A stretch of DNA of 64,000 bases from an uncultured Gammaproteobacteria bacterium (GTDB lineage Bacteria; Patescibacteriota; Microgenomatia; Levybacterales; UBA12049): contig CAYRJZ010000001.1 in NCBI GenBank assembly GCA_964424775.1, positions 140,748 to 204,747 on the forward strand. Direction: 5' to 3'. Of this stretch, positions 7,552 to 60,452 are shown piece by piece (the first letter of the stretch is position 1; each line of letters opens with the position of its first letter). The notes below the pieces were generated by a model. That model saw only the letters and a program-made list of their open reading frames with translations. It made no database searches and was not told where the DNA came from. Made by a program: the position numbers and the translations under genes.

Positions 7552-8097
7552 TTAGGAGGAATGAAGAGAAAAAAGTTTTTGGAACAGAGGATTTGTTTCA
7601 AGCAGTTGTGCTTCTTCTACACACCATTCTGAGTACTCATTCGGTAAAGAGATTTCTTCTAAAAACTTTTTCCATGGAACATATCTTGTTTCTGCGACTT
7701 CATCAGGATTGGGTATTGGCAACTCATCAGTAAAGCCAATCATCACTGGACAAATTTCATTTTCAACTATTCCTTTATGTTCATAGCGGTAACGATAATT
7801 TGGAAGGATAATTGATAGGTCAATATTTGTTAAATTAAGTTCAAAAGAAAGTCTTCTTTTCCCTGCATCTACAACGCTCTCATCCATCATCGGATGTCCA
7901 CAACAACTATTTGACCAAATAAGTGGCCAGGTCTTTTTTTTGTTACTTCTTCTCTGAAGAAGTAAATTTCCGTCTCTATTAAAGAGAAAAACAGAAAATC
8001 CCCGGTGAAGGGGAGTTGTGTCGCTATGGGCATCATACTTATCCATGGTCCCAAGCGGAATATTTTTTTCATCAACTAAGACAACATATTCTTTCAT
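7552..8097 (-). CDS. idi: Isopentenyl-diphosphate delta-isomerase, type 1 (Nudix fold)
   Basis: QRRSNKKKTWPLIWSNSCCGHP and EHKGIVENEICPVMIG align with the E. coli Idi active-site region ([22 protein letters not shown]...). The start is taken at the internal ATG (MKEYVVLVDE) because the track start at 8181 overlaps the neighbouring gene. Confidence 0.8.
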   Translation of the reverse strand: MKEYVVLVDEKNIPLGTMDKYDAHSDTTPLHRGFSVFLFNRDGNLLLQRRSNKKKTWPLIWSNSCCGHPMMDESVVDAGKRRLSFELNLTNIDLSIILPNYRYRYEHKGIVENEICPVMIGFTDELPIPNPDEVAETRYVPWKKFLEEISLPNEYSEWCVEEAQLLETNPLFQKLFSLHSS

Positions 8098-8125
8098 ATA
8101 TCTTTGGTAACTATAGCATAGAAGA

Positions 8126-9265
8126 TTACTTTGTTGAACGAGAAGTATTTGAGGAAATAAAATCAAAAACTGTTTGAACAAGTCCTCCTAGTACCATAAG
8201 GTATAGGATAAAGATGCTAAACCAACCAAGAATAGGAATAAATGAAAGAAGTAGTACTACAACTGGCCCAAGTACCGCAGCTTTCCAGTCGAGCACATAT
8301 TCTTTTTTATTTCTTTTTTCCCACCAGCTAAGAATTTTTGCTCCAACATAGATCTTGAGTAAGCCAAGCGAAAGAAGGAGCAAGAGTATATACACAACAA
8401 ACCAGGTAATTCCTAACCAGATAATAATGAGGAGGAACAACCCCGCAACTGGCATAAGGAAAAGTGAACTAAATCCAAGTCCTAAACTCTTGATCTTTGA
8501 TAACTCAATTTTCTCGAGTACTTCCTTCGTAATAAATCCGAGAACGAGGACAAATAAGAGACTGAAGAGAATATCCATAACTAATGTGTAAATGGTACCT
8601 GCGCTGATGAGTGCTTTTGCTTGTTCATTACTTCGATGTTCTTGCTCTGTATAACGAGTATTTCCTTTGACAACAGCTCCCTCCTGAGATATCACTTTCT
8701 CCTCAGAGGTATACGTTAAATCGCCTGCAATTGATGCAGAAGATCCTATTGTTAGTTGTCCCATATTGCCTGAAACATCTCCTCCAACTGGTGCATTTAT
8801 GCGGACATCACCACCATTTGCATACACATTTCCTTTTACTGGACCTTCAACTTCTAACGTACCTCCGGTTATTATGAGGTCTCCTCCAACAGATGATGTT
8901 TTAGAGAGTCGTATAGTGCCCCCTGCAACAATAAGATCTTCTCCAATGGAGTCTTCGATGGTGATTGTTCCTCCGGCAATTCGTGCAGATTGTGAAATAG
9001 GACCGCTGATTGTAATAGTGCCACCAGCTGCCATAAGGCTTCTCTGTATCTCGCCTTCAAAAAGAAGAGTTCCTCCTGCAGCGACGATATCTTTTTGCGA
9101 AGATACACTTACCTCAACTCGGTCACCAGCAAGATACGTGTTTTCAAGAAGGGGGGTTTTTGAGAAAAAGACGTTTTCACCACTTTTAAATGTCGCTGCT
9201 GAAGCTGACGGTGTGAAAAGAAGCAGGAGACAAATGAGTAAAATGATCTTTTTGATGAGTTTCAT
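8126..9265 (-). CDS. Membrane protein with a signal peptide, bactofilin-like beta-helix repeats and four C-terminal transmembrane helices
   Basis: Start taken at MKLIKKIILLICLLLLFTPSASA, a signal peptide. Then about ten imperfect repeats of roughly 17 aa (AGGTITISGP / AGGTIRLSK / TGGTLEVEG / NGGDVRINAP) resembling bactofilin/DUF583-type right-handed beta-helix units. These are followed by four hydrophobic helices. Confidence 0.55.
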   Translation of the reverse strand: MKLIKKIILLICLLLLFTPSASAATFKSGENVFFSKTPLLENTYLAGDRVEVSVSSQKDIVAAGGTLLFEGEIQRSLMAAGGTITISGPISQSARIAGGTITIEDSIGEDLIVAGGTIRLSKTSSVGGDLIITGGTLEVEGPVKGNVYANGGDVRINAPVGGDVSGNMGQLTIGSSASIAGDLTYTSEEKVISQEGAVVKGNTRYTEQEHRSNEQAKALISAGTIYTLVMDILFSLLFVLVLGFITKEVLEKIELSKIKSLGLGFSSLFLMPVAGLFLLIIIWLGITWFVVYILLLLLSLGLLKIYVGAKILSWWEKRNKKEYVLDWKAAVLGPVVVLLLSFIPILGWFSIFILYLMVLGGLVQTVFDFISSNTSRSTK

Positions 9266-9334
9266 TTCCACTATAATAGCATTACTAAACCATATTATAC
9301 CAAGGATTACAATGATATTGATCACACAGTAAAT

Positions 9335-10156
9335 ATGAAAAAATTAATAAAAATTAGTCGACCACGATTTTGGATCTATTTATTCGGCCCATTCTTAATT
9401 GGACTTGCCGTAGGAGGAATAAATAGAGATTATTTTTCTCTTGATCTCCTAGTCTTGGGTCTTTATTTTCTCTTTCCTGCAAACTTTCTTTTGTATGGTA
9501 TAAATGATATTTTTGATTATGCTACAGATAAACTCAATCCAAAGAAAAAGAAGTATGAAGAACTCGTTACTCCAAAAGAACAAAAAAGACTTTTTCAACG
9601 AATACTTCTCTTAACACTGCCTTTTTTTATCTATAGCGTATTTATCTCCCTTGAAGTAGGCACACTTTTGGGGTTATTTGTACTTCTTTCTCTGCAGTAT
9701 TCCTCTCCTCCCATAAGAGCAAAGTCTAAACCATTTCTTGATATGGTATTTAATGGGCTGTATATTATCCCAGGTATTATTTCCTATTTTATTATTTCCG
9801 GAACATATCCATCTCCTCTCATTATTTTTTCTGCACTGTTTTGGACTATGGCAATGCACGCATATTCAGCTGTCCCAGATATTAGTGTTGATAGAAATGC
9901 ACATATTCAGACAATAGCAACGCAATTAGGTTTTACACCAACACTCTATCTGTGTCTTGTCTTATATATCATTTCAGCACTACTTATTTATCCGTTTCTA
10001 GGAGTTTTTGCCATCTTTGTTGCACTTATTTATGTCACTTTAATGTCACTCTCTCTCATGAGTAATGAAACAGACATATTCTCTCTTTATAAGAAATTCC
10101 CAATCATAAATACCATTGTAGGAGGACTATTATTTTTCTATCTTTTGTTAAAGTGA
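9335..10156 (+). CDS. UbiA-family membrane prenyltransferase, possibly a lycopene-elongase-like enzyme
   Basis: 273 aa with 7-8 predicted TM helices and the UbiA-superfamily Asp-rich motif NDIFDYATD (NDxxDxxxD). It lies within the crt gene cluster. Confidence 0.6.
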   Translation: MKKLIKISRPRFWIYLFGPFLIGLAVGGINRDYFSLDLLVLGLYFLFPANFLLYGINDIFDYATDKLNPKKKKYEELVTPKEQKRLFQRILLLTLPFFIYSVFISLEVGTLLGLFVLLSLQYSSPPIRAKSKPFLDMVFNGLYIIPGIISYFIISGTYPSPLIIFSALFWTMAMHAYSAVPDISVDRNAHIQTIATQLGFTPTLYLCLVLYIISALLIYPFLGVFAIFVALIYVTLMSLSLMSNETDIFSLYKKFPIINTIVGGLLFFYLLLK

Positions 10157-11647
10157 AGATAATGGATGAGATGACTTTATTCCTTGAATTCTTTTATATG
10201 CAAGTTCTGCACTAATGAGACAAATAGGGACACCTATACCAGGATTGGTATTTCCTCCGACATAATAGAGATTTTTTACTTTTTTGCTTTTATTATTTGG
10301 TCGAAAAATAGCTGTTTGTTTAAGTGTATGAGCAAGACCTAAAGCAGATCCTTTATAGCTATTGTATCTTTCTTCAAATTCTCTTACTGAGAAGAATTCC
10401 TCAACTTCAAGATGCGTTTTGATATTTGGTACTTTCATAGTATCTTCTAAAAATTGATACGTTTTATTTTTATATATTTCTATATCATTTTTTGTTAAAG
10501 TCATTCCTGGTGCAATTGGTACAAGCACAAAAAGATTTTCTTTACCAGAAGGAGCCACACTTGGATCAGTATAGCTTGGACAGCACACATATAAGGATGG
10601 ATCATTAGGGAGTTGGGGATGTTCAAATATTTGAGAAAAATTTCGTTTCCAGTTATTTGAAAAATATAAATTATGATGAACTAAACTTTTAACTTTCGTG
10701 TTAAGTCCAAGATATAAAAGAAACGTTGAGGGAGCAAGTGTTTTTTTTCCCCAGTAATCCTCATTATACGTTTGTGATTCAGGTTCAAGGAGAACCGTTT
10801 CAGTGTGATGCATATCTGCATTTGAGATGACAAGATCTGCTTGAATTCGTTCGTTTCCAATTTTTACCCCAGTTGTAGTTCCATTTTCTACAACAATTTT
10901 TGTAATCGAAGAGGATGTATGGTATGTAACTCCATGTTTTTTTCCAATGGCTACGAGACTTTTTACGATTTCATACATTCCTCCCATCGGGTAAAATACG
11001 CCCATATTAAAATCAATATGGCTCATAATGTTATAGAGTGCAGGAGTGTTATACGGTGATGCACCAAGAAACACGAGATGATACATGAGGATTTTTCTCA
11101 TTTCATCTGATGAGAATCTCTTTGAAACATAGGAATCCATTGATTCGAAAACAGAAAGTTTACTTCCCCTCGTCATGAGATCCCATGTAAAAAAATCTTT
11201 GATAGAATTATAATTTTTGTACATAAAATTATTGATTGCAATTTCATATTGACGTTTTGCTGTGTCTAAATACTTATCTAGTTTTTCTAAGCTATTTTCT
11301 TCAAAATTCTCAAATATCCTTTTGTTTTTTTGCATATCGGAAAAAACATCAACTGGCTTTTCTTTTCCGCTAAAGAAAATTCTGTATGAGGGAGATAGTT
11401 TAACGAGTTTGAGATGATCTTCTACCCGTTCTCCAAGGAGTTTATAGAAATGTTCAAAAACATCCGGCATGAGGTACCACGATGGTCCCATATCAAAAAT
11501 GAACCCTTTTTTCTTTAGGATATTACATCTACCACCAAGAGTTGCGTTTTTTTCAAAGAGTTCAACTGAGTATCCTTTTTTTGCAAGAAGTGCAGCTGCT
11601 GCAAGTCCACCTATTCCGCCACCAATAATAATAACTTTTTTTTTCAT
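10148..11647 (-). CDS. crtI: Phytoene desaturase family oxidoreductase (CrtI/CrtN-type)
   Basis: N-terminal FAD-binding VIIIGGGIGGLAAAALLAKKGY. The IFDMGPSWYLMPDVFE motif is characteristic of CrtI-family desaturases. It is 499 aa. Confidence 0.8.
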   Translation of the reverse strand: MKKKVIIIGGGIGGLAAAALLAKKGYSVELFEKNATLGGRCNILKKKGFIFDMGPSWYLMPDVFEHFYKLLGERVEDHLKLVKLSPSYRIFFSGKEKPVDVFSDMQKNKRIFENFEENSLEKLDKYLDTAKRQYEIAINNFMYKNYNSIKDFFTWDLMTRGSKLSVFESMDSYVSKRFSSDEMRKILMYHLVFLGASPYNTPALYNIMSHIDFNMGVFYPMGGMYEIVKSLVAIGKKHGVTYHTSSSITKIVVENGTTTGVKIGNERIQADLVISNADMHHTETVLLEPESQTYNEDYWGKKTLAPSTFLLYLGLNTKVKSLVHHNLYFSNNWKRNFSQIFEHPQLPNDPSLYVCCPSYTDPSVAPSGKENLFVLVPIAPGMTLTKNDIEIYKNKTYQFLEDTMKVPNIKTHLEVEEFFSVREFEERYNSYKGSALGLAHTLKQTAIFRPNNKSKKVKNLYYVGGNTNPGIGVPICLISAELAYKRIQGIKSSHPLSSL

Positions 11648-12706
11648 TTATGAATTTCGAGCAAGGTTGTAGGAAAGAAGTTCTGATAAAACTGTTTTAT
11701 ATTTTTCAGAAATTTTTAAATCTTCGATAAGTGTCTGTGCACCATGTGCTAACTTAGTCATTTCATTCTGTATCTCGTCACGGGTTCCTGTTTTAGTAAT
11801 AATATTTCGCACATACTCTATCATCTCAGGAGTAAGATCTTTATTTCCAAAAATTTTGGAAAGCCTTTCTTTCTCAGTAGAATTTACTTTATTGAATAAT
11901 GTTGTGTAGTAAAGTGTTTTCTTTTCTTCGCGAATGTCAGAGCCAACTGGTTTTCCAATTTTTTCTTCATTTCCAAATAGACCAAGTTCATCATCTCTCA
12001 TTTGAAAAATTATTCCGAGGGATTCACCCAATCTCTCAAGTGATTTCAGGACACTTCTGGACTCACCACACAGAAGCGCGCCGGCCAGAAGTGGAAGGGT
12101 AAAGGTATAGCGTGCAGTTTTATAGGTATACATTGCAAGAATTTGTTCTTCTGTTACTCTTTTATCACTTCCTCCAAAGTAAACATCCTGCATCTGCATG
12201 AGGCCAACAGCAGTCATTTCATCAGAGAAGAGTTGAATAATTCGTGTTTTTCTGTCAGGGTCTCCCTGGAGCTGAGATAAAAGAGAATATGCAAGAAAAA
12301 AACCAATATCACCTACACATATACCCATACTTATCCCAAATTGGTGAGGGGAGGAAAGGTGCTCTTTTTCTCCTAAATCTTCATATTGGGCAAAGATAGT
12401 ACGTTGTCCTCTTCGAGTGTAATCATTATCCATAATGTCATCATGGATAAGAAGAGAGGTATGGAGGAGTTCTAATGCAACAGCAAGATGTAATCCGTCT
12501 TCTGAGTTCTGTCCTGAAAACATTTCTTCAGAAAGAAGAACAAGCCCTCCTCGAATCATTTTTCCCTCAGTTGCGAAATCTTGCAATCTATGGAGAACAT
12601 CAGGGCCAAACATATTAATTTTATGCAGTTGAGCTTCTTGCCTTTTTAAGTAGGAAAGAAGATGATGTGAGATCACAAATTTTTTTTCTTTAAAATACTT
12701 TTCCAT
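11648..12706 (-). CDS. crtE: Polyprenyl diphosphate synthase (GGPP/FPP synthase family)
   Basis: First Asp-rich motif LIHDDIMDNDYTRRG and second motif FQMRDDELG. The start may instead be the internal Met at about 12613, because 12706 overlaps crtB by 17 nt. Confidence 0.8.
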   Translation of the reverse strand: MEKYFKEKKFVISHHLLSYLKRQEAQLHKINMFGPDVLHRLQDFATEGKMIRGGLVLLSEEMFSGQNSEDGLHLAVALELLHTSLLIHDDIMDNDYTRRGQRTIFAQYEDLGEKEHLSSPHQFGISMGICVGDIGFFLAYSLLSQLQGDPDRKTRIIQLFSDEMTAVGLMQMQDVYFGGSDKRVTEEQILAMYTYKTARYTFTLPLLAGALLCGESRSVLKSLERLGESLGIIFQMRDDELGLFGNEEKIGKPVGSDIREEKKTLYYTTLFNKVNSTEKERLSKIFGNKDLTPEMIEYVRNIITKTGTRDEIQNEMTKLAHGAQTLIEDLKISEKYKTVLSELLSYNLARNS

Positions 12707-22910: not shown

Positions 22911-24680
22911 ATGCAAAATATAATAAGGATAATTAAAATTTCGAGGCCATTACATCATTTGGTCTTTATACTTGCTGCTCTTATTCTTTTTTCTGCTCTC
23001 CTCAATCTTGCAGCGCCACTTCTTTCAAAATTCATTGTTGATGAAATTGTAAATCGTGTTCAAGGACAAGGTGGTGATCTTGGGAGACTTCTTTTCTTAA
23101 TTATTCTTGCATTTGTTATGAATTTTATAGGGCTTGGCACAACAACAATTAGTGAGAGGATTGGAGATCATTTTGCTGGACGATTAAGAAAGTTCTTAAC
23201 AGAGAAGTTCTATGATAAAGCGCTCACTCTCCCTCAAGCATATTATGACTCTGAAATGTCTGGGAAAATTCTTAACCAATTAAATAGAGGAATAACAACA
23301 ATTCAAGGTTTTCTAAACACATCTACCAATTTTATACTTCCAACATTTTTACAAAGTATATTTACTGTTGCAATTCTTGCCTACTATAATTTGCCAATTG
23401 CATTCTTCACTTTTATTCTTTTCCCAATTTACTTACTTCTTAGTTATTACTCAACAGTTCAGTGGGGTAAAGAAGAAGTACTAAAAAATGCAATTGAGGA
23501 TAAGACTCGGGGACGAATGCAGGAGGTAATTAGTAATATAAGTTTGGTTAAAAGTTTTACAACTGAGAAAAAAGAATTCAAAATAATTGCAGATAACTTA
23601 ACTGAGATTAATAAGATTTATGCAAGACAAAGTAAAACATTTCATATTTATGACTTTTTCAGAGGACTATCTCTACAGATAATATTATTTGCAATTAATA
23701 TCCTAGTTTTTTACAACACATTTCAACGAAATCTGACGATTGGAGAAATGGTGTTAATTCTTCAGTTAGTAAACCAAGCGAGACTTCCACTTTTTGCTAT
23801 GTCCTTTATTTTGACACAGATACAGATGGCAGAAGCGGGATCAAAAGAATATTTTGAGGTCCTTAATGAAAAGTCAGTTGAGGATTATGAAAAGAAAGTT
23901 TCATTAACTCTTATTAAAGATCCTACGATCTCATTTGATAATGTCTCCTTTAAATATGAAGAATCAAATACAGTTCTAAATTCTGTCTCTTTTAATATTA
24001 AGAAAAATGAAGCAATAGCTCTCGTAGGGCATAGTGGAGCAGGTAAATCAACAATTATAAATCTTATTCTTAAATTTTATGAACCAACTTCTGGAAAAAT
24101 ATTTCTTCGAGATAAAGAGTACTCAACACTTGATCATAAAATGGTGAGACAAAATATTTCACTTGTTTTTCAAGATAACGAGCTTTTCTCCTCGACTATT
24201 CGTGAGAATGTAGCATACGGAAAATCGGATTCTTCAGAAAAAGAAATTGTGAATGCTCTTAAATTGGCTAATGCATATGATTTTGTAATGAAACTTCCCA
24301 ATAAATTAGATAGTGAAGTTGGAGAACGTGGCGTGAGACTATCAGGGGGACAAAAACAGCGTATACAGATTGCGAGAGCAATACTGAAAAATGCTCCTAT
24401 ATTAATTCTTGATGAAGCAACATCCTCACTTGATGCAAAGTCAGAAAAAGACGTTCAGGACGCCTTAGAGAATTTGATGAAGAACAAATTAGTTATTATT
24501 ATTGCCCACCGTTTTTCAACAATTCAAAATGTAGATAAAATAATTGTGCTTGACCAGGGGACTATTGTGGATATGGGTACTCCTCAAGAGTTAGCAGAGA
24601 GGCCTGGAATTTATAAAGATCTTCTCACTTATCAAGTTGAAGGAAATAAAAAGCTTCTTGAAAAGTATGAAATTTATTAA
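22911..24680 (+). CDS. ABC exporter with fused permease and ATPase (MsbA/MdlB-like)
   Basis: Six-TM N-terminal domain, then Walker A GHSGAGKST, signature LSGGQKQR and Walker B ILILDEATS. Confidence 0.85.
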   Translation: MQNIIRIIKISRPLHHLVFILAALILFSALLNLAAPLLSKFIVDEIVNRVQGQGGDLGRLLFLIILAFVMNFIGLGTTTISERIGDHFAGRLRKFLTEKFYDKALTLPQAYYDSEMSGKILNQLNRGITTIQGFLNTSTNFILPTFLQSIFTVAILAYYNLPIAFFTFILFPIYLLLSYYSTVQWGKEEVLKNAIEDKTRGRMQEVISNISLVKSFTTEKKEFKIIADNLTEINKIYARQSKTFHIYDFFRGLSLQIILFAINILVFYNTFQRNLTIGEMVLILQLVNQARLPLFAMSFILTQIQMAEAGSKEYFEVLNEKSVEDYEKKVSLTLIKDPTISFDNVSFKYEESNTVLNSVSFNIKKNEAIALVGHSGAGKSTIINLILKFYEPTSGKIFLRDKEYSTLDHKMVRQNISLVFQDNELFSSTIRENVAYGKSDSSEKEIVNALKLANAYDFVMKLPNKLDSEVGERGVRLSGGQKQRIQIARAILKNAPILILDEATSSLDAKSEKDVQDALENLMKNKLVIIIAHRFSTIQNVDKIIVLDQGTIVDMGTPQELAERPGIYKDLLTYQVEGNKKLLEKYEIY

Positions 24681-48485: not shown

Positions 48486-48541
48486 AAATTAGGACAGTTG
48501 TGGCATTATACTCTGCTTTTTCTCAAATTTAAAGTGTTATG

Positions 48542-48612
48542 TCGGGGATCGGAGAATTGAACTCCGGTCACACGGACCCCATCCGCGCATTCTACCGTTA
48601 AACTAATCCCCG
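48542..48612 (-). tRNA. tRNA-Pro (anticodon GGG), no encoded CCA
   Basis: Minus-strand sequence CGGGGAT-TA-GTTT-AACGGTA-GAAT-G-CGCGG-ATGGGGT-CCGTG-TGAC-CGGAG-TTCAATT-CTCCG-ATCCCCG-A folds as a cloverleaf. Acceptor stem 7/7 WC, anticodon stem 5 bp (4 WC, 1 G-U), T stem 5/5 WC, and a D stem with two G-U pairs. The C1:G72 pair plus A73 is the ProRS identity set. The anticodon loop AUGGGGU has U33 and G37. Confidence 0.8.
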
Positions 48613-48806
48613 CAATTTGGACAAACCTCGCAGTTTTTCCAAACGATTTCCCTTGAAAGAGCTTATGATATGTGATTTTAGCAGAGAAAAAATGATCTTT
48701 CCATTGATATAGAATGAGTGAGAAAGTCTCATTGTATTTTACCCGAAAGTTATTTATAGTAAGTTCATTCTTTATGGCAAGATCTTCAGGTAACTCCCAA
48801 AAAACA

Positions 48807-49877
48807 ATGCAGGCCCCATCCGATTCTGCACAAAAACTTGAGTCTATACGCATGGCGATGGAGCAGATCGAAAAACAGTATGGTCGTGGTTCTATTATGC
48901 GTTTTGGAGAAGCAGCTGGAAAGCTGGATATCTCCGTTGTTTCTACTGGTTGTCTTCCGCTTGACCTGGCACTTGGTGTCGGCGGCCTGCCCCGCGGAAG
49001 AATTATAGAAGTGTATGGACCGGAAGCTTCAGGTAAGACAACTATTTGTCTTTCAACAATTGCTCAAGCACAAAAGCACGGAGGAATTGCTGCGTTTATT
49101 GATGCAGAACATGCCCTTGATCCATTGTGGGCTGAGCGAATCGGGGTAAAACTCGATGAGCTGCTTATTTCCCAGCCCGACACTGGAGAACAAGGTCTTG
49201 AGATCGCAGAAAGCCTTGTCAGAAGTGGAGGAGTCGATGTCCTCGTTATTGACTCAGTTGCAGCTCTTGTCCCACGAGCGGAAATTGAAGGAGATATGGG
49301 AGATGCTGTTGTTGGACTTCAGGCCCGTCTTATGTCTCAAGTACTTCGAAAATTAACAGCAGTTATCTCAAAATCAAAGACAGTTGTTATCTTTACCAAT
49401 CAATTGCGCCAGAAAATTGGCGTCATGTTTGGTAATCCTGAAACAACAACTGGAGGACTTGCGCTTAAATTCTATGCATCAGTTCGTATGGATATTCGAA
49501 AAATAGAGACCCTTAAAGAAGGAGATAAGGTAATTGGATCCAGACACCGAGCTAAAATAGTTAAAAATAAAGTTTCGACTCCATTTAGAATTGCTGAATT
49601 TGATGTTTTTGAGCAGGGTATCTCACGAGAGGGTGGCATTTTGGACGTTGGAGTTGAGATGGGACTTATCACTAAGTCAGGAGCATTTTATCGATATAAA
49701 GAACAGCTTATTGGTCAGGGTAAAGCAGCATCACTTGATTGGTTGAAAGAAAATCCTGATGAGACCAAGAAAATTGTCCAGGCAATTATGACGAAGAGTA
49801 AAGATGGAGAGATGCCGGTTGAAGTCGGCGTTGAAGAGGAAGAATCAGAAGATACAACAGTTGAAAATCCTCAGTAA
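48807..49877 (+). CDS. recA: Recombinase RecA
   Basis: [12 protein letters not shown], Walker [10 protein letters not shown] and L1/L2 loops. The start is taken as the ATG at 48807 ([23 protein letters not shown]) by alignment to the E. coli RecA N-terminus. 48852 is an alternative. The track start at 48714 runs into the tRNA. Confidence 0.9.
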
Positions 49878-49891
49878 AAATTTCCTCATAC

Positions 49892-50386
49892 ATGGAAAAT
49901 TTTGAGAAGTACTATACCTCAGCAGTCCATTTCTTAACATCTCGTCCGCGTTCTGTGAAAGAAGTTCGAGACAATCTTTTTAAAAAATATAAAAAGTGGA
50001 ACAATCCTGAAGACTGCGAAGAAGTAATTGACGAAGTTATTAATAAACTTCTTCAACAAAAATTTTTAGATGATGTTGTCTTTGCTCTCTGGTGGAGGGA
50101 ACAAAGAACGCGGTTCAGAGCTAAGAGTGATCGTCTGATCAAAATAGAGTTAATACAAAAAGGAGTTGCTCGGGATATTATTGAAAAAGCTTTTTCAGAA
50201 GAATCAGAAGACATAGGATCTGATTATGAAAAAGCAAAGAGATTAATTGAGAAAAGACTTCCTAAACTTACTTTACTTACTCCTCAAGAAAGATTTCAGA
50301 AACTTGCAGGATTTTTAGGAAGACGGGGTTTTGACTATGAGACAATTAAGCGTGCAATTGACGATTCTTTAAGAAATGGGGTATAA
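49892..50386 (+). CDS. recX: Regulatory protein RecX
   Basis: 164-aa all-helical protein immediately downstream of recA. The RecX three-repeat pattern (W...R at repeat starts) is weakly visible. Confidence 0.65.
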   Translation: MENFEKYYTSAVHFLTSRPRSVKEVRDNLFKKYKKWNNPEDCEEVIDEVINKLLQQKFLDDVVFALWWREQRTRFRAKSDRLIKIELIQKGVARDIIEKAFSEESEDIGSDYEKAKRLIEKRLPKLTLLTPQERFQKLAGFLGRRGFDYETIKRAIDDSLRNGV

Positions 50387-50483
50387 TTGAGTTCAAGTGG
50401 AAAAAGTACCTATGCAGAAACGGACGGAATTTCATTTCTCCCTCGTTGAAGCTTAATATTTTAGGCTTTTCCTTCATTTATTT

Positions 50484-51755
50484 ATGGCTGACGTAACACA
50501 ACAAGATCTCTTGGCACTTGAGAAAAAACTCCTTGAACGCCAGGAAAAAATTGAACAAAAACAAGAACAAGTAGAAAAAGATAAAGAGTATTTTGAAGAA
50601 AAGCGTTCAGAATATATCAATAAGCTCGAAAAAGCTTCTGGATTGACTCGCGAAGAAGCGAGACAGGCTCTTCTTGAAGAAATAGAAAAAGATTCTGCTG
50701 CCATGATGGCACGAATTATTAAAGAGAAAGAAGAAGAAGCAAAAACGACAGCAGATTTTAAAGCACGCGAAATCCTCGTTGACGCAATGAGACATGGTGC
50801 TCTTGACTATATTGCTGAATACACAGTAACTGTTGTCAAAGTAGAAGACGAGGAAATGAAGGGTAGAATTATTGGAAAAGAAGGGAGAAATATTCGCGCC
50901 TTTGAACAAACAACAGGAGTTGACGTTGATCTCGATGAAGAAGGTGTCATAAGACTCTCTTCATTTGACTCAGTTAGACGAGAAATTGCTAGGCGATCCC
51001 TTGAAAAACTCTTAAAAGATACTCGAATTCAACCATTCAGAATTGAAGAAATAGTTGAGCAAACTCGAAAAGAAGTCGAGAAGATCATGTTTGATGAAGG
51101 ACAAAAATTAGCGGTTGAAGTCGGTGTTTATAATATTCCAGCAGAACTCTATACCACACTTGGTCGATTTAAATTTAGAACATCGTTTGGTCAGAATTTA
51201 GTTGTCCATACACTTGAAGAGACAAAGATTGGAATTCAGATTGCTCATGAGACCGGAGCAGATGTGAATGTCGTTCGACTTGGTTGTCTCTTCCATGATA
51301 TTGGAAAAGTTATTGACGGGGAAGGGAGTCATGTTAAAAAAGGTGTAGAGTACCTCAATCGCTTTAATCTCCCTGAAGCTGTCGTCAACTGTGTTGCTGA
51401 GCATCATGAAGATAAGCCGTTCTCTTCACTTGAGTCAGTCATAGTCCATATTGCTGATTCAATTTCTGGAGCTCGACCAGGAGCTCGCTATGAGGATATT
51501 GAGAATTATGGAAAGAGACTCAAAGAAATGGAAGAGATTGCGAAAAAATACGAAGGTGTTGAAGACGCGTATGCATTTGAAGCAGGGCGAGAACTCCGAG
51601 TTATTATCAATCCAGGAAGACTTGATGACAACCAAACAATTCTTCTTTCTAAAAAGATTCAGGAAGAAGTCGCCTCACGCCTTGCTATCCCAGGCGAGGT
51701 AAAAGTAACTGCCATTCGTGAATTCAGATCTGTTTACCCATCACACACCCTCTAG
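50484..51755 (+). CDS. rny: Ribonuclease Y (KH plus HD domains), lacking an evident N-terminal TM helix
   Basis: Coiled-coil N-terminus, KH motif GKEGRNIRAFEQTTGVDV, and HD domain LFHDIGKV...HH. Confidence 0.8.
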   Translation: MADVTQQDLLALEKKLLERQEKIEQKQEQVEKDKEYFEEKRSEYINKLEKASGLTREEARQALLEEIEKDSAAMMARIIKEKEEEAKTTADFKAREILVDAMRHGALDYIAEYTVTVVKVEDEEMKGRIIGKEGRNIRAFEQTTGVDVDLDEEGVIRLSSFDSVRREIARRSLEKLLKDTRIQPFRIEEIVEQTRKEVEKIMFDEGQKLAVEVGVYNIPAELYTTLGRFKFRTSFGQNLVVHTLEETKIGIQIAHETGADVNVVRLGCLFHDIGKVIDGEGSHVKKGVEYLNRFNLPEAVVNCVAEHHEDKPFSSLESVIVHIADSISGARPGARYEDIENYGKRLKEMEEIAKKYEGVEDAYAFEAGRELRVIINPGRLDDNQTILLSKKIQEEVASRLAIPGEVKVTAIREFRSVYPSHTL

Positions 51756-51854
51756 TCACGTATTAGCTTGATTTGTCAAAGTAATCCCTTGACAACCCTT
51801 TGTTTTCATTATACTGTTAATCTAATCCTAGAATTTATGAGAGGGGGTGATTGT

Positions 51855-52127
51855 ATGACGAAGAAAGATTTAATAGAAATAGTCGCTAAAAAGGCCAACC
51901 TAACGAATAAAGCTTCACGGGATGCTGTCCAGACAACGCTAAATACTATCCGTGATTCGCTCAAGAGAGGAGAGAAAGTTGTTTTGACTGGATTTGGAAC
52001 TTTTAGTGTGAGAAGTCGTCAACAACGCATTGGACGAAATCCAAAAACTGGTGAACGAATTACTCTTGCTGCTCGCAAAGCTCCTGGATTTACCCCAGGA
52101 AAGACATTTAAGAAAGCAATCAGGTAA
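51855..52127 (+). CDS. hup: DNA-binding protein HU
   Basis: MTKKDLIEIVA...GFGTFSVRSRQQRIGRNPKTGERITLAARKAPGFTPGK. SD gagggggtga upstream of the ATG at 51855. Confidence 0.85.
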   Translation: MTKKDLIEIVAKKANLTNKASRDAVQTTLNTIRDSLKRGEKVVLTGFGTFSVRSRQQRIGRNPKTGERITLAARKAPGFTPGKTFKKAIR

Positions 52128-52194
52128 ATTTTTCCTGCCCTACATGAAGAGGTTTCTCAATATGAGAGACCTCTTCTGTTACAATGGAGTTACT

Positions 52195-53175
52195 ATGACT
52201 ATTAATATTCATAATTTATCCAAATACTACTCTGTTCATAAAAAAGAGCCAGGATTTATGGGATCTCTCAAATCTCTTTTTTCCAGAAAATATGAAACAG
52301 TAAAAGCAGTTGACTCAATTTCATTTTCTATTGATGAGGGAGAGGTCGTCGGCTTTATTGGACCAAATGGAGCTGGAAAGACGACAACACTTAAATGTCT
52401 CTCAGGCCTTCTCTATCCGACAAAAGGAAAAATCGAAGTATTAGGATTCACGCCCTTTGATCGAAAGCATGAATACTTAAGACAGATATCACTCGTCATG
52501 GGTCAAAAAAATCAATTATGGTGGGATCTTCCTGCAATGGATACATTTTTATTAAATAAAGAGATATATCAAATACCTGATGCTTCATTTAAAGAGGTTA
52601 TTGATGATCTGTCAGCAAGACTTGAGGTAACAGACTTGCTCCATGTGCCTGTCAGAAAATTATCTCTTGGGCAGAGAATGAAAATGGAGCTTATTGCAGC
52701 ACTCATTCATTCACCAAAAGTTCTTTTTCTAGATGAGCCGACAATAGGTCTTGATGTCGTTATGCAAAAAACAATTCGAGAGTTCTTAAAAGATTACAAC
52801 ACTAAATACAAGGCAACAATTATTTTAACGTCACATTATATGGGTGATGTTGAGGCACTTTGTAAAAGAGTAATTGTTATCAATCATGGAAAAATTCTTT
52901 ATGATGGATTACTCTCTGACTTAACAAAAAAGCAGGCTCCATATAAAACGATAAAAGTAATTTTTTCTGAGTTTGTTGACCCTAAAAAGTTAGAAAGTAT
53001 TGGAAATACAAAGTCTTTTCATTATCCAGAATGGGAAGTAAAAGTAAAACAAAATCAGGCAAATGATGTTGCTGCGGAAATTCTTAAGTCACTTCCTGTT
53101 GAGGATATTACAATTGAGGATCCTGAGATGGAAGATGTTATTGCAGGTTTTTTTGAAACAAGTAAAAAAGAATAA
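52195..53175 (+). CDS. ABC transporter ATP-binding protein (ABC-2 system ATPase)
   Basis: Walker A GPNGAGKTT, signature LSLGQRMK, Walker B VLFLDEPT. About 100 aa of C-terminal accessory domain. The start is the ATG at 52195. Confidence 0.85.
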   Translation: MTINIHNLSKYYSVHKKEPGFMGSLKSLFSRKYETVKAVDSISFSIDEGEVVGFIGPNGAGKTTTLKCLSGLLYPTKGKIEVLGFTPFDRKHEYLRQISLVMGQKNQLWWDLPAMDTFLLNKEIYQIPDASFKEVIDDLSARLEVTDLLHVPVRKLSLGQRMKMELIAALIHSPKVLFLDEPTIGLDVVMQKTIREFLKDYNTKYKATIILTSHYMGDVEALCKRVIVINHGKILYDGLLSDLTKKQAPYKTIKVIFSEFVDPKKLESIGNTKSFHYPEWEVKVKQNQANDVAAEILKSLPVEDITIEDPEMEDVIAGFFETSKKE

Positions 53176-53183
53176 TACTATGT

Positions 53184-53981
53184 ATGCGTTATTTTCATAT
53201 CTTTCTTATCCACTTTCATCGAGTAATAGAGAATAGGAGTAGATCATTTGTTTGGACTCTGTTAGCTCTCTTTAATCCACTTATTTATTTGTGTTTTTGG
53301 CTTGCAGTTTATAAAAGTAGCGGGAACTTAGTTGCTGATTGGTCACTTCCTGAATTGACCTCGTATTATCTTCTCTTAACTTTTGCAGGATCTTTTCTTA
53401 TTGCTCACATTGAAGAATCAGTTGCGCTTGAGGACATATATGAAGGTGGTTTAGTCCGGTTTATTTTAAGACCTTTCTCTTATTTTTGGGATCTTTATTT
53501 TGGTGAACTGGGATGGAGAATTTTTCAGGGAAGTATCGGACTATTCATTTTTTTCATTTTCACTCTTTTCTTTGGTCAACTTACGACTGTAGTCACATCA
53601 CCTCTCTTAATTCTTCTCACAATTCTTTCAGTGATTTTGGCATTTACATTGTCTTTTATTTTTAAAATGATTTTAGGTTTTAGTGCATTTTGGTTAACTG
53701 AATTTAGAGGGCTTCAAAGCACTGTTGAGATATTTATTTTAATTTTCGGAGGATTTATTGTCCCACTACATTTCCTTCCTTCTTTCATTGAGGGTATTGC
53801 GATGAAATTGCCTTTTGCCTACATGGTGTACTATCCCATTCTGGCAATTCAAGGAAGGCTAGATCTACTAACAATAATAAAAGTATTATTTCTTCAACTG
53901 GTATGGATTGGAGTATTTGCAATTTCTTATAAAATTATTTGGAACGCAGGTCTGAAAAGATTTACTGGAGTAGGGAATTAG
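53184..53981 (+). CDS. ABC-2 family permease, type A (copy 1)
   Basis: Six TM helices. The block IYEGGLVRFILRPFSYFWDLYFGELG is paralogous to copy 3. Confidence 0.65.
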   Translation: MRYFHIFLIHFHRVIENRSRSFVWTLLALFNPLIYLCFWLAVYKSSGNLVADWSLPELTSYYLLLTFAGSFLIAHIEESVALEDIYEGGLVRFILRPFSYFWDLYFGELGWRIFQGSIGLFIFFIFTLFFGQLTTVVTSPLLILLTILSVILAFTLSFIFKMILGFSAFWLTEFRGLQSTVEIFILIFGGFIVPLHFLPSFIEGIAMKLPFAYMVYYPILAIQGRLDLLTIIKVLFLQLVWIGVFAISYKIIWNAGLKRFTGVGN

Positions 53982-53982
53982 A

Positions 53983-54771
53983 ATGAAACATGCATTCAGA
54001 ATTTATAAGAGACTTTTCATAATGAATTTTTCTGTTCTCACAGCCCATCGTGCTGCTTTTGTAAATCATCTCGTTGGAGGTACTGTATGGGGGATTTTTT
54101 CATTTGTCGTACTCCTCCTGCTGACACATAATATCAAAGGATTATTTACATGGAGTAGGGAAGAAATGCTTTTATTAGGAAGCATACTAGCTATAATACT
54201 TGGAATTTTTAATATGTTCTTTCAGGGAAATTTTGATGCATTTCCTCTATTAGTCAATAAAGGCAAACTTGATCAATATTTACTCAAGCCAGTCGATTCA
54301 CAATTTTTTCTCTCAGTTTGGCACATAAAGATGATGAGTATAACTCGTGCTCTTATTGGGATTATATTTCTCGTGTATGTAACAATTCAATATGATATGA
54401 CACTTTCTTTAGTTGGAGTACTTGGTGTTATTCCACTGATGATAGTATCAATGGGAATTTACTATGCCATCTGGTCTGTTGTTACGACTCTGACTATTTG
54501 GTTTGATAGAGCGACTAATATTGTAGAACTGTTGCATTCACTTCAGGGGATGATGCGAATCCCTCCAGTTGCTTTTCAAGAATTAAATACTATTCTTTTT
54601 TTATTAGTATTTCCACTTACAATTGTTGCTGCAACACCCGTGGGAGTGATTCTTGGGAAATCTGACTTTATAAGCATACTAGTTCTTTTCATTACATCAG
54701 TCACATTTCTTTTTATTGCTCGAAAGTTTTGGTTTTATGCACTAAGATTTTATACCAGTGCAAGTAGTTAA
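53983..54771 (+). CDS. ABC-2 family permease, type B (copy 1)
   Basis: Six TM helices. The block GKLDQYLLKPVDSQF and the C-terminal RFYTSASS are paralogous to copy 4. Confidence 0.65.
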   Translation: MKHAFRIYKRLFIMNFSVLTAHRAAFVNHLVGGTVWGIFSFVVLLLLTHNIKGLFTWSREEMLLLGSILAIILGIFNMFFQGNFDAFPLLVNKGKLDQYLLKPVDSQFFLSVWHIKMMSITRALIGIIFLVYVTIQYDMTLSLVGVLGVIPLMIVSMGIYYAIWSVVTTLTIWFDRATNIVELLHSLQGMMRIPPVAFQELNTILFLLVFPLTIVAATPVGVILGKSDFISILVLFITSVTFLFIARKFWFYALRFYTSASS

Positions 54772-54773
54772 GT

Positions 54774-55565
54774 ATGAAAAAATATTTTCGTGTGGCTCGA
54801 AATACATGGGATGAATCTCTCGCTTATAGAACTAGTTTTGTGCTTTTTCGACTCAGAGAATTTCTGCAAATAATTTCTTTATATTTTGTCTGGTTTTTTG
54901 TGACATCTCAAGGAGATTTTTTTAACTACAACCAGAAAACATTGCTTACTTATATACTCGTTAGTGCATTTGTCAATGATGTTATTTTTTCAACGAGAAC
55001 TACTCGAATTGCCTCAGAAATCAATGAGGGTGTGTTAACAAATTTCTTAATTCGACCCATGTCATATCTAAAATATTATTTCGCTCGTGATTTTGGTGAC
55101 AAAGCAATGAATATCCTATTTTCACTTGGAGAACTCACACTTCTCTTCTTATTACTTCAACCACCTTTCATTTTTCAGACAAATATAATAGCTCTTCTAT
55201 TATTTTTATTCAGTATGTTTTTAGGAGTTATTCTTCATTTTTTAATTAGCGTATTGATTGGATTTATTGGATTTTGGAGTAATGAGGGGTGGGGACCACG
55301 GTTTATCTTCTATCAGTCAGTTGGTTTTTTCTCGGGATCACTTTTTCCATTAGATTTACTACCAAAATCTATTGCAACAATCTTTCAGTTCCTGCCCTTT
55401 TCATATCTTACTTATTTTCCAACTAAGTTATATCTTGGACAATTATCAATACAGGAAGTTATTCTTGGATTTATTGGCGTGAGTGTGTGGATATTTATCA
55501 TGAGTAGGGTGACACTATATGTTTGGAGGAGGGGCCTTCACGTATATACTGCTCAAGGAATGTGA
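54774..55565 (+). CDS. ABC-2 family permease, type A (copy 2)
   Basis: INEGVLTNFLIRPMSYLKYYFARDFG matches the block in the 53184 gene. Confidence 0.65.
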   Translation: MKKYFRVARNTWDESLAYRTSFVLFRLREFLQIISLYFVWFFVTSQGDFFNYNQKTLLTYILVSAFVNDVIFSTRTTRIASEINEGVLTNFLIRPMSYLKYYFARDFGDKAMNILFSLGELTLLFLLLQPPFIFQTNIIALLLFLFSMFLGVILHFLISVLIGFIGFWSNEGWGPRFIFYQSVGFFSGSLFPLDLLPKSIATIFQFLPFSYLTYFPTKLYLGQLSIQEVILGFIGVSVWIFIMSRVTLYVWRRGLHVYTAQGM

Positions 55566-55566
55566 T

Positions 55567-56349
55567 ATGAAAAAATATATTTTTCTCTGGATAAAGGTAA
55601 CGAGCCAAATAACTCAAGTTGCTTTTGCATCTCGACTTGGAGTTGTCCTTTTTACTATCGGCAAAATAATTCGATTTGTTTTCTTTCTTGTTTTCTTATT
55701 TCTCATTACATCACGTACCAATAGCCTTGCTGGATATTCGATTTGGCAAGTCATACTTTTCTTTTTGACTTTCAATATTATTGATATTATTGCTCAATTC
55801 TTATGGCGCGATGTATATAGATTTCGAAGTTATATCATATCAGGTAATTTTGACATGATACTTACCAAGCCAATATCTCCACTTTTTCGTTCACTTTTCG
55901 GCGGAAGTGATGTGCTGGATCTGATTACCCTTGTTCCTTTAGGAGTATTCTTTTTTTATGTCGTAAATCAATTGGACGGAATAACAATAGTAAGCGGATT
56001 ACTTTATATTTTATTAGTTATAAACGGACTTATTATTTCGCTTGCACTTCATATTTTTGTTCTTGCACTTGGAATTGTGACAACTGAAGTAGATAATGCA
56101 ATTTGGATGGTGAGAGAGATCACACAACTGGGAAGATTTCCTATTAAAGTCTATCCTAAGCCAATAAGTTTTGTCTTTACTTATTTTCTTCCTGTTGCCG
56201 CACTTATTGTTATTCCAACTGAAGCACTTTTAGGTTTAGTTACTGTGCAGGGTATACTTTTAGCAGTCATATTTAGTAGTCTATTGTTATCGATCAGTCT
56301 TTGTTGCTGGAGAGGTGCGCTGCAAAAATACTCTAGTGCAAGTAGTTAA
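55567..56349 (+). CDS. ABC-2 family permease, type B (copy 2)
   Basis: GNFDMILTKPISPLF and the C-terminal LQKYSSASS match the 53983 gene. The start is the ATG at 55567. Confidence 0.65.
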   Translation: MKKYIFLWIKVTSQITQVAFASRLGVVLFTIGKIIRFVFFLVFLFLITSRTNSLAGYSIWQVILFFLTFNIIDIIAQFLWRDVYRFRSYIISGNFDMILTKPISPLFRSLFGGSDVLDLITLVPLGVFFFYVVNQLDGITIVSGLLYILLVINGLIISLALHIFVLALGIVTTEVDNAIWMVREITQLGRFPIKVYPKPISFVFTYFLPVAALIVIPTEALLGLVTVQGILLAVIFSSLLLSISLCCWRGALQKYSSASS

Positions 56350-56352
56350 GGG

Positions 56353-56700
56353 CATTCTGGGAAGAGAGTAAGCCAGATTCTGTTCATACCACAATCTCTC
56401 TCAAAGTGATGAATATCAATCTGTCAGCTTTTAAGGCTGATGCCTTCTAACTTTGCTGCTCGTGTATAGGCTCATTGCAGCGTTCGGAAGTTGCAGCAGG
56501 GAGGATTGCCCGTTTCACACCCACTCGTCTCTGTTGCTCTCAAGTCTTGTTAATTCAAGACCCGTTCTTTACCCCATGTGTGGGAAAAGGATAAAGAAAC
56601 TAGATGTTACCATTCGGAGCTTACACTCCATCCCATCTATACATGCTGTCTGGACTTTCCTGTCCGTCAGATGACGGACTAGTGGTCCTTCTTCCCAGAA
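56353..56700 (-). ncRNA. rnpB: RNase P RNA (bacterial type), about 350 nt
   Basis: The minus strand carries ACAGGAAAGUCCAGAC (P4 5' strand, compare GGAAAGUCCGGGC) and AACAGAAUCUGGCUUA (P4 3' strand, compare ACAGAACCCGGCUUA). The change CCGGG to CCAGA is matched by CCCGG to UCUGG, a compensatory change. Also present: AUAGAUGGGAUGGAGUG / GGUAACAUC (compare AUAGGGCAGG...GGUAACGCC), a P1 pairing UUCUGGGAAGA / UCUUCCCAGAA at the two ends, a P3 hairpin GUCCGUCA-ucug-UGACGGAC, and a P2 pairing ACCAC / GUGGU. The region is GC-enriched relative to its flanks. Confidence 0.75.
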
Positions 56701-59651: not shown

Positions 59652-59714
59652 GCAGACTATTCTATCATACTCAATCGCTTGTTTAGGAAGAGGTGAGTTG
59701 TTATGATAGTCCGT

Positions 59715-60452
59715 ATGGCAACTCCAGCGCGTGAGTTTTATCTTCCATTTCTCAGAAAAGAGCAAAGGGCAAAAGATACCTATTCTTTTTATTTCGAAAA
59801 AACGGAACAGTTAGAGTATAACCCAGGTCAGTACATCCGAATGACACTTGATTTGCCTGAGGAGGACCCAAGAGGATTTCGACGACCTTTTTCTTTGTGT
59901 GCTTCACCTCTAGACCCTGAAATTATGATTACAACAAAAATTGTTGAAAAGCCAAGCATTTTTAAGCAAAAGTTATCATCTCTTCACCCAGGTGAGAAGA
60001 CTAAATTTTTTGGACCAATCGGAGGATTTGTCCTTCCTCAAGATTTGCAAACACCACTAGTCCTTCTGGGAGGAGGAATTGGGATTACACCTTTTTATTC
60101 AATGATTCGCTACGCATCTCAAACAAATTTCCAAACTCCGACAACACTTATCGTCTCATTCAGCACAGTGGAAGAGGCTGCTTTTTATAATGAGTTGAAA
60201 GATATTTCCTCACAGAACAGTTATCTCCAGGCAGTTTATACCATTACCCATCCAGAAGAATCTCAACAAGAATGGTCAGGCGAGAAGGGGAGAATAAGTG
60301 AGGAGATGATAAAAAAATATGTTGCGGATCCTCTGAATGCCTACTATATGATCTGTGGCCCAGAAATAATGGTGAATGCCATGATAGAGACAGTGACAGC
60401 TATGGGGGTGTCAGAAGATCAGATCAAGAGAGAAAATTTCACAGGGTATTAA
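59715..60452 (+). CDS. FNR-like FAD/NAD(P)-binding oxidoreductase
   Basis: R-x-F-S (RRPFSL) flavin-binding motif and GGGIGITPF NAD(P)-binding motif. No C-terminal Fe-S cysteine cluster. The start is the ATG at 59715 (MATPAREF). Confidence 0.6.
   Translation: MATPAREFYLPFLRKEQRAKDTYSFYFEKTEQLEYNPGQYIRMTLDLPEEDPRGFRRPFSLCASPLDPEIMITTKIVEKPSIFKQKLSSLHPGEKTKFFGPIGGFVLPQDLQTPLVLLGGGIGITPFYSMIRYASQTNFQTPTTLIVSFSTVEEAAFYNELKDISSQNSYLQAVYTITHPEESQQEWSGEKGRISEEMIKKYVADPLNAYYMICGPEIMVNAMIETVTAMGVSEDQIKRENFTGY

Follow-up and report, generated by a model that had tools for sequence, protein, structure and literature searches.

Organization of the operon

This analysis concerns an operon for a predicted ABC-2 transporter (ABC, ATP-binding cassette) of the DUF990 type, in which a single ATPase gene is followed by four permease genes. 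It lies in a stretch of 64,000 nt, hereafter referred to as the window, taken from positions 140,748 to 204,747 of contig CAYRJZ010000001.1 (assembly GCA_964424775.1), which was deposited as an uncultured Gammaproteobacteria bacterium and is assigned by GTDB to Patescibacteriota (Microgenomatia; Levybacterales; UBA12049). The five genes, designated the ATPase gene, A, B, A2, and B2, are all co-oriented and separated by intergenic spacers of 8, 1, 2, and 1 nt, and they therefore constitute one tightly coupled unit (Table 1). For B2, an alternative upstream ATG is present at 55519; the majority of B2 homologues are 260 aa in length.

Table 1. Position of the operon genes and of other features in the window
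Feature	Position	Strand	Length or remark
ATPase gene	52195-53175	+	326 aa
Permease A, first subunit of pair 1	53184-53981	+	265 aa
Permease B, second subunit of pair 1	53983-54771	+	262 aa
Permease A2, first subunit of pair 2, paralogue of A	54774-55565	+	263 aa
Permease B2, second subunit of pair 2, paralogue of B	55567-56349	+	260 aa
Unrelated ABC ATPase ORF	22911-24680		589 aa
ORF overlapping tRNA-Pro(GGG), probably spurious	48506-48853		115 aa
tRNA-Pro(GGG) gene	48541-48612	-	
recA-recX-rny-hup	48714-52127		
Inverted repeat in the hup-ATPase spacer	52140-52172		read by eye
RNase P RNA class A match	56353-56698	-	probable rnpB
FNR-like gene	59703-60452		

The ATPase, the only one encoded in the operon, contains a nucleotide-binding domain (NBD) of the DrrA/ABCA type (PF00005, 100.7 bits). 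Its catalytic motifs were intact in the translation, including Walker A (GPNGAGKTT), the signature motif (LSLGQRM), Walker B (LFLDEPTIGLD), and the H-loop (TSHYM). The best NCBIfam model was TIGR01188 (drrA; 208 bits against a cutoff of 312), which covered residues 32 to 315, and the best PDB match was 4yer_A (5e-44 over residues 31 to 316), followed by the NBDs of ABCA1/3/4/7. A preliminary description, made from the sequence alone, had attributed a C-terminal accessory domain to this protein. Since the drrA model extends to residue 315 and the 4yer and NosF alignments to residues 316 to 318, the extra domain of ~75 aa beyond the NBD is real, and it is typical of DrrA-type ATPases. The only other ABC ATPase of the window, considered as a possible second ATPase for the A2-B2 pair, was an unrelated ORF and was rejected.

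Two alternating permease types

All four permeases exceeded the gathering score of PF06182 (ABC2_membrane_6/DUF990; cutoff 22 bits), as expected from the preliminary description, with scores of 54.7 (A), 141.9 (B), 77.0 (A2), and 114.4 bits (B2). None of them matched a model in NCBIfam. In Smith-Waterman alignments evaluated with 200 shuffles, A and A2 shared 28.6% identity (z = 20; 27-29% across comparisons), and B and B2 shared 26.6% (z = 11.5; 25-27% across comparisons). BLASTP aligned A and A2 end to end over 267 columns (2e-13), and the corresponding value for B and B2 was 1e-4. Among cross-type combinations, A-B was at background (z = 0.6), and A-B2 and B-A2 gave z-scores of 3.8 and 3.5, respectively. 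A2-B2 also reached z = 11.6, yet BLASTP aligned just 71 C-terminal columns of these two proteins. The pairwise data alone are therefore ambiguous on the types, and the assignment was decided by family profiles. When profiles built from related loci were aligned with hhalign, A-A2 (E = 8e-38, score 254) and B-B2 (E = 9e-30, score 201) stood apart from all cross-type permease pairs (E = 1e-6 to 1e-12, scores 46-85).

A neighbor-joining (NJ) tree of 101 permeases was calculated from Poisson distances with 100 bootstraps; the distances were saturated, those between types especially. The tree recovered clades for A (98% bootstrap), A2, B, and B2 (100% each), and the split between A, A2, and the A-like outgroup proteins on one side and B, B2, and the B-like outgroup proteins on the other was supported at 100%. 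Two-permease systems of the outgroup supplied one member to each type, in agreement with the profiles. The sequence blocks reported to be shared by A and A2 (RPFSYFWDLYFGELG / RPMSYLKYYFARDFG) and by B and B2 (KPVDSQF...RFYTSASS / KPISPLF...KYSSASS) were present and mutually aligned. The proposal that a single ATPase gene is followed by four permease genes, alternating between two paralogous types, was thus borne out by identities, profiles, and the tree, and chance similarity between the paralogues is excluded by the shuffle z-scores, profile E-values, and bootstrap values. Searches with the individual permeases retrieved 68 homologues of A (nearly all from Patescibacteria), 34 of B, and 891 of B2; the named sources were Levybacteria/Levyibacteriota, Gottesmanbacteria, and "Patescibacteria group", corresponding to the class Microgenomatia.

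Permease content of related loci

Permease content was surveyed in 22 species-representative genome loci centred on A and 80 metagenome loci centred on the best B2 matches, together with loci reached by exact-protein look-up. The ORFs of these loci were all classified by phmmer comparison with the five operon proteins, and synteny was scored with the RecA, RecX, RNase Y, HU, helicase, and FNR-like proteins of the window. Three architectures were found. ATPase-A2-B2 was present at 48 loci in Microgenomatia, and ATPase-A-B-A2-B2 at 16 loci in addition to the window and L112, the locus of its closest relative. ATPase-A-B was present at nine loci, each followed by 2 kb or more of sequence, where the absence of the second pair refers to what was seen within ~6 kb of the locus. 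No A2 or B2 remnants were found in the A-B-only loci. Relatives with two and with four permeases therefore both exist. Outside the Microgenomatia-type clade, all loci seen carried two permeases (Chloroflexota L024/L025, L004-L006, L113, and L114), and a two-permease system is likewise known from Bacillus cereus (BC0513-0515; PMC5417439). One ATPase with two permeases, described beforehand as the norm of the family, indeed holds for L024/L025, L113, and L114 and for most Microgenomatia loci.

Mixed pairs, that is, A with B2 or A2 with B, were not found among the ~75 informative loci, and a second ATPase was not found at any locus of the census. The closed 762-kb genome of a Levyibacteriota member (L029; CP066685.1) contained only A2-B2, and no match in the A search came from a contig of this size. 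L016 carried all four permease genes. In L017, a 3.5-kb insertion between B and A2 (8587-12088) split A-B from A2-B2 without bringing in a new ATPase for the pairs. The insertion encodes, on the opposite strand, a P-loop ATPase of 726 aa, presumably a candidate VirD4/TraG-type coupling protein judging by eye, and it also contains a cysteine-rich ORF.

The syntenic position of the ATPase orthologues did not differ among the three architectures. The gene order recA-recX-rny-hup preceded the ATPase gene at most loci with enough upstream sequence, as it does in the window, and the synteny was kept in Microgenomatia loci with ATPases down to ~70% identical. Judging from this gene order, the transporter belongs to a stable housekeeping block.

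History of the two permease pairs

On average, proteins of the A clade were 23.6% identical to those of the A2 clade and 23.9% identical to homologues from other phyla; for B, the values were 21.8% against the B2 clade and 26.5% against the outgroup. In the NJ tree, the outgroup pairs grouped with A (62% bootstrap) and B (90%), and the support for their grouping with A2 and B2 was 0 and 8%, respectively. A and A2 were exclusive sisters in 0% of the bootstraps. By these measures, the two pairs are ancient paralogues, as divergent from each other as homologues across phyla. The preliminary description had assumed a tandem duplication of a permease pair. The paralogy itself stands, but a local and recent event is rejected, because the pairs are only ~24% identical and A and A2 were never exclusive sisters. 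The placement of the outgroup may mean that the split is older than the divergence from those phyla, that A-B was gained laterally, or that the long stems of A2 and B2 cause an attraction artefact.

In the ATPase tree, likewise an NJ tree on saturated distances, loci with A-B only were nested within four-permease clades (95-100% bootstrap), and monophyly of the four-permease loci received 0%. Permease content has therefore changed repeatedly, and by whole pairs. Identities to the window also differed between pairs in L032 (74/78% for A2/B2, 58/48% for A/B) and L034 (64/64% for A2/B2, 73/64% for A/B). On these values, the histories of the pairs are incongruent, L032 being nearer to the window than L034 in A2/B2 and farther from it in A/B.

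A divergent allele of gene B

Comparison with L112 revealed a discontinuity confined to B. The ATPase, A, A2, and B2 were 89-98% identical to their counterparts in L112 at the amino acid level, and the flanking genes 89-100%, whereas B shared 61.8% identity with its counterpart (L112 8800-9588). Nucleotide identity, 82-91% up to the start of B (53983), fell precisely there to 55-79% and was back to 92% at the start of A2 (54777). In addition, dS was 1.87 for B and 0.7-1.0 for the other four genes of the operon. The B alleles of the window and L112 were about equidistant from B of L034, L033, and L001. Relative to L112, B alone looks like it has been swapped for a divergent allele, i.e., a single-gene allelic replacement as read from the alignments. 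Values of dN/dS against L112 ranged from 0.015 to 0.16 over the five genes, which are therefore all under purifying selection; among the permeases, they were 0.037 for A2, 0.049 for A, 0.062 for B2, and 0.16 for B, the fastest-evolving.

Predicted fold and a common loop motif

A structure of B was predicted with AlphaFold2 (AF2) on an alignment of 119 B and B2 sequences (pLDDT, the predicted local distance difference test, 92.6; pTM, the predicted template-modelling score, 0.90). An earlier model of B2, built on 16 sequences, had a pLDDT of 59 and was too poor to use. The helices of the B model spanned residues 2-21, 23-47, 59-92, 117-136, 143-173, 179-198, 203-224, and 229-255. They included an N-terminal interface helix, six transmembrane (TM) helices, and a broken TM5/re-entrant region, which are features of type V exporters. 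Top PDB matches in Foldseek were Wzm (6m96_B, 7k2t_B, and 6oih), TarG (9cfl and 6jbh), PmtCD (6xjh), KpsM (8tsh), and ABCG25, with a probability of 1.0 and TM-scores of 0.5-0.59. A sequence search of the PDB with B yielded no match. According to this high-confidence model, B is predicted to adopt a Wzm/TarG-like type V exporter fold.

The most conserved motif common to the four permeases was G-x-[LF]-x(3)-[LI]-x-[RK]-P, exemplified by EGGLVRFILRP, EGVLTNFLIRP, KGKLDQYLLKP, and SGNFDMILTKP. In the B model, it falls in the segment that links long helices two and three and, by analogy, may represent the coupling-helix site in the predicted cytoplasmic TM2-TM3 loop.

Proposed mechanism and alternatives

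The operon most likely encodes two type V (ABC-2) exporters of the ethyl viologen exporter (EVE)/DUF990 family that share one nucleotide-binding subunit, a reading to which we assign a probability of roughly 0.6. Each permease pair would form a heterodimeric membrane domain, and the two alternative modules would use the G-x-[LF]-x(3)-[LI]-x-[RK]-P motif to bind a common ATPase homodimer, giving the complexes (ATPase)2-A-B and (ATPase)2-A2-B2. The pairs would export different substrates, possibly small molecules that are cationic or amphipathic, if the viologen exporter EvrABC is a guide, or lipid- or glycan-linked compounds, if the fold of Wzm and TarG is, and lineages would have retained one or both of the ancient pairs. 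Two heterodimeric exporters are favoured because each pair occurs alone with an orthologous ATPase in related genomes. Of the two assemblies suggested in the preliminary description, alternative pairing is thus the one retained, and the heterotetramer is disfavoured by the same observation. The correlation of evolutionary distances, controlled for ATPase distance, was 0.62 for A-B and 0.65 for A2-B2, compared with 0.21-0.48 across pairs. In solved type V exporters such as WzmWzt and TarGH, two membrane domains are combined with two NBDs.

Several points weigh against this reading. The within-pair correlation could reflect linkage or a shared recombination history of adjacent genes, and not co-adaptation. 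Genomes with A-B only might hold A2-B2 elsewhere, possibly with another ATPase. The counts of the census, which was centred on A and the 80 top-scoring B2 matches, are biased and do not represent frequencies. Further, the association of subunits is read from the genes, and the coupling-helix assignment is drawn from general type V topology.

Among the alternatives, combinatorial pairing fares best, although we regard it as unlikely. Association of A with B2 or A2 with B, or the formation of homodimers, would give more than two transporter specificities from one operon. All four permeases carry the same TM2-TM3 loop motif and could all dock on the same ATPase, and the presence of a 62%-identical allele of B without a change in A suggests tolerant partner requirements. 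Against this stand the complete absence of non-cognate pairs from the informative loci and a co-divergence that was higher within pairs than across them.

A related explanation, which we consider somewhat more doubtful, describes the operon as a modular cassette, in which pairs and the single gene B are exchanged by recombination among Microgenomatia and paired combinatorially on one ATPase. If so, one small operon would yield several tunable export specificities, and the fast turnover of B would be a sign of diversifying selection, acting in these host-dependent bacteria on a subunit that is exposed or defines the substrate.

One obligate complex of the ATPase and all four permeases, whose membrane part would be a heterotetramer or a dimer of heterodimers, is improbable and ranks behind both. 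The tight packing of the five genes and the single ATPase would fit such a complex, as would the conservation of the four-gene order in the 16 other loci and L112, with ATPases as low as 70-75% identical. It is difficult to reconcile, however, with the occurrence of each pair alone beside an orthologous ATPase, with the separation of the pairs by 3.5 kb in L017, and with the solved type V exporters of closest fold, which use two membrane domains per transporter.

Finally, it is least probable that one pair is a redundant duplicate heading for loss and contributing nothing distinct: either pair has repeatedly been lost in related lineages and B evolves fastest (dN/dS 0.16), but none of the four permease genes is truncated or disrupted in the window, the 16 four-permease loci, or L112, their dN/dS values are 0.04-0.16, and the pairs, at ~24% identity, are each conserved as separate clades, which is unexpected for redundant copies kept for so long.

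Surroundings of the operon

The HU gene (hup) lies 67 nt upstream of the ATPase gene. In the spacer, an inverted repeat (GAAGAGGT ... ACCTCTTC) was recognized by eye. Behind it lie TGTTACAAT, similar to an extended -10 element, and then GGAG ahead of the ATG. Read from the sequence, this element could be the hup terminator, a promoter, or both. Downstream, a gap of 383 nt separates B2 from a UvrD/PDDEXK helicase gene. The gap holds, on the opposite strand, a full-length match to class A RNase P RNA (RF00010, model positions 1-367), which scored 58.4 bits (E = 2.2e-17) against a gathering score of 100 and thus lies below the threshold of a standard Rfam scan. The P4 motifs AGGAAAGUCC and ACAGAAUCUGGCUUAC were present in the match, which probably represents a reduced and divergent rnpB of the candidate phyla radiation (CPR) filling the space between B2 and the helicase gene.

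No riboswitch or leader RNA was detected at the Rfam gathering score, the single such match of the whole window being a tRNA. A tRNA-Pro(GGG) gene is located on the minus strand upstream of the operon, and the listed ORF of 115 aa that overlaps it is probably spurious. A gene for a substrate-binding protein was absent beside the operon in the window, where the neighbours are hup, the RNase P RNA match, and the helicase gene. In the annotated relatives L001, L003, and L029-L031, no substrate-binding-protein Pfam families were found among the products flanking the operon.

An FNR-like gene is located just past the helicase gene of the window, and many Microgenomatia loci have one there too. In L004-L006, where no ATPase gene is adjacent, genes for a 2Fe-2S ferredoxin and an FNR-like flavoprotein directly follow the permease pair (7754-8934). 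The proximity of FNR-like genes to the permeases may be a coincidence; it deserves mention since the viologen substrates of the family are redox cyclers.

Records of metagenome-assembled genomes titled 'uncultured Gammaproteobacteria bacterium' (L007, L008, L010, L013, L014, L020, L021, and L023) were found to carry the Patescibacteria-type locus, and several of them also showed the recA-recX-rny-hup synteny. Their Gammaproteobacteria labels look wrong.

Relationship to known systems and significance

The EVE family (TCDB 3.A.1.141) has been equated with DUF990 (PMC5417439). Its characterized member is EvrABC of Synechocystis sp. PCC 6803, a viologen exporter according to the account of Prosecka et al. 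(2009) given in PMC10469934; the statement in the preliminary description that the substrates of this transporter type are unknown was therefore too strong. Among Patescibacteria, homologues of evrABC have been noted only in Microgenomatia (PMC10469934). The window operon is likened to EvrABC through Pfam family and gene content: both have PF06182/DUF990 permeases and an ABC ATPase with two different permease subunits, and both lack a binding protein. They differ in that EvrABC consists of one ATPase and two permeases, whereas the window operon has one ATPase and two paralogous pairs. DUF990/EVE transporters are, to our knowledge, widespread but barely studied, with one member characterized and no structure solved.

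The likeness to WzmWzt, TarGH, KpsMT, PmtCD, and ABCG proteins lies in the fold of the B model, and the ATPase of the window is of the related DrrA/ABCA type. Sequence identity to these exporters was just 11-19%. Moreover, Wzm and TarG form homodimers, whereas the window operon encodes two subunit types, each present twice.

The service of one ATPase gene to several membrane modules, as proposed here, is familiar from MsiK of Streptomyces, MsmK of Streptococcus, and group II energy-coupling factor (ECF) transporters. These are type I or ECF importers, whose shared ATPase is usually encoded apart from the permeases. In contrast, the modules of the window would be heterodimers of exporter type whose genes share an operon with the ATPase gene, and the sharing is suggested by the content of the locus.

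In Firmicutes, operons of natA with COG3694 and COG4587 genes lie behind ppGpp riboswitches; they also combine one ATPase with two DUF990-type permeases, and their function is unknown (PMC6003355). The window operon differs from them in having four permeases rather than two and a hup-ATPase spacer of only 67 nt, in a window with no riboswitch at the Rfam gathering score. No prior description of a four-permease DUF990 system was found in the literature. As judged from its genes, the four-permease arrangement is a variant of the EVE/DUF990 ABC-2 exporters that recurs in a subset of Microgenomatia.

The finding opens no long-standing question, and its value lies in transporter evolution and in the annotation of CPR genomes. 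The fixed housekeeping locus of the operon in the very small genomes of Microgenomatia suggests that the system matters to these organisms. In addition, the polymorphism of three states, with pair 1, pair 2, or both and always one orthologous ATPase, amounts to a natural comparative experiment, from which one could learn how a single ATPase works with two divergent heterodimeric modules and what residues determine the specificity for partner and substrate.

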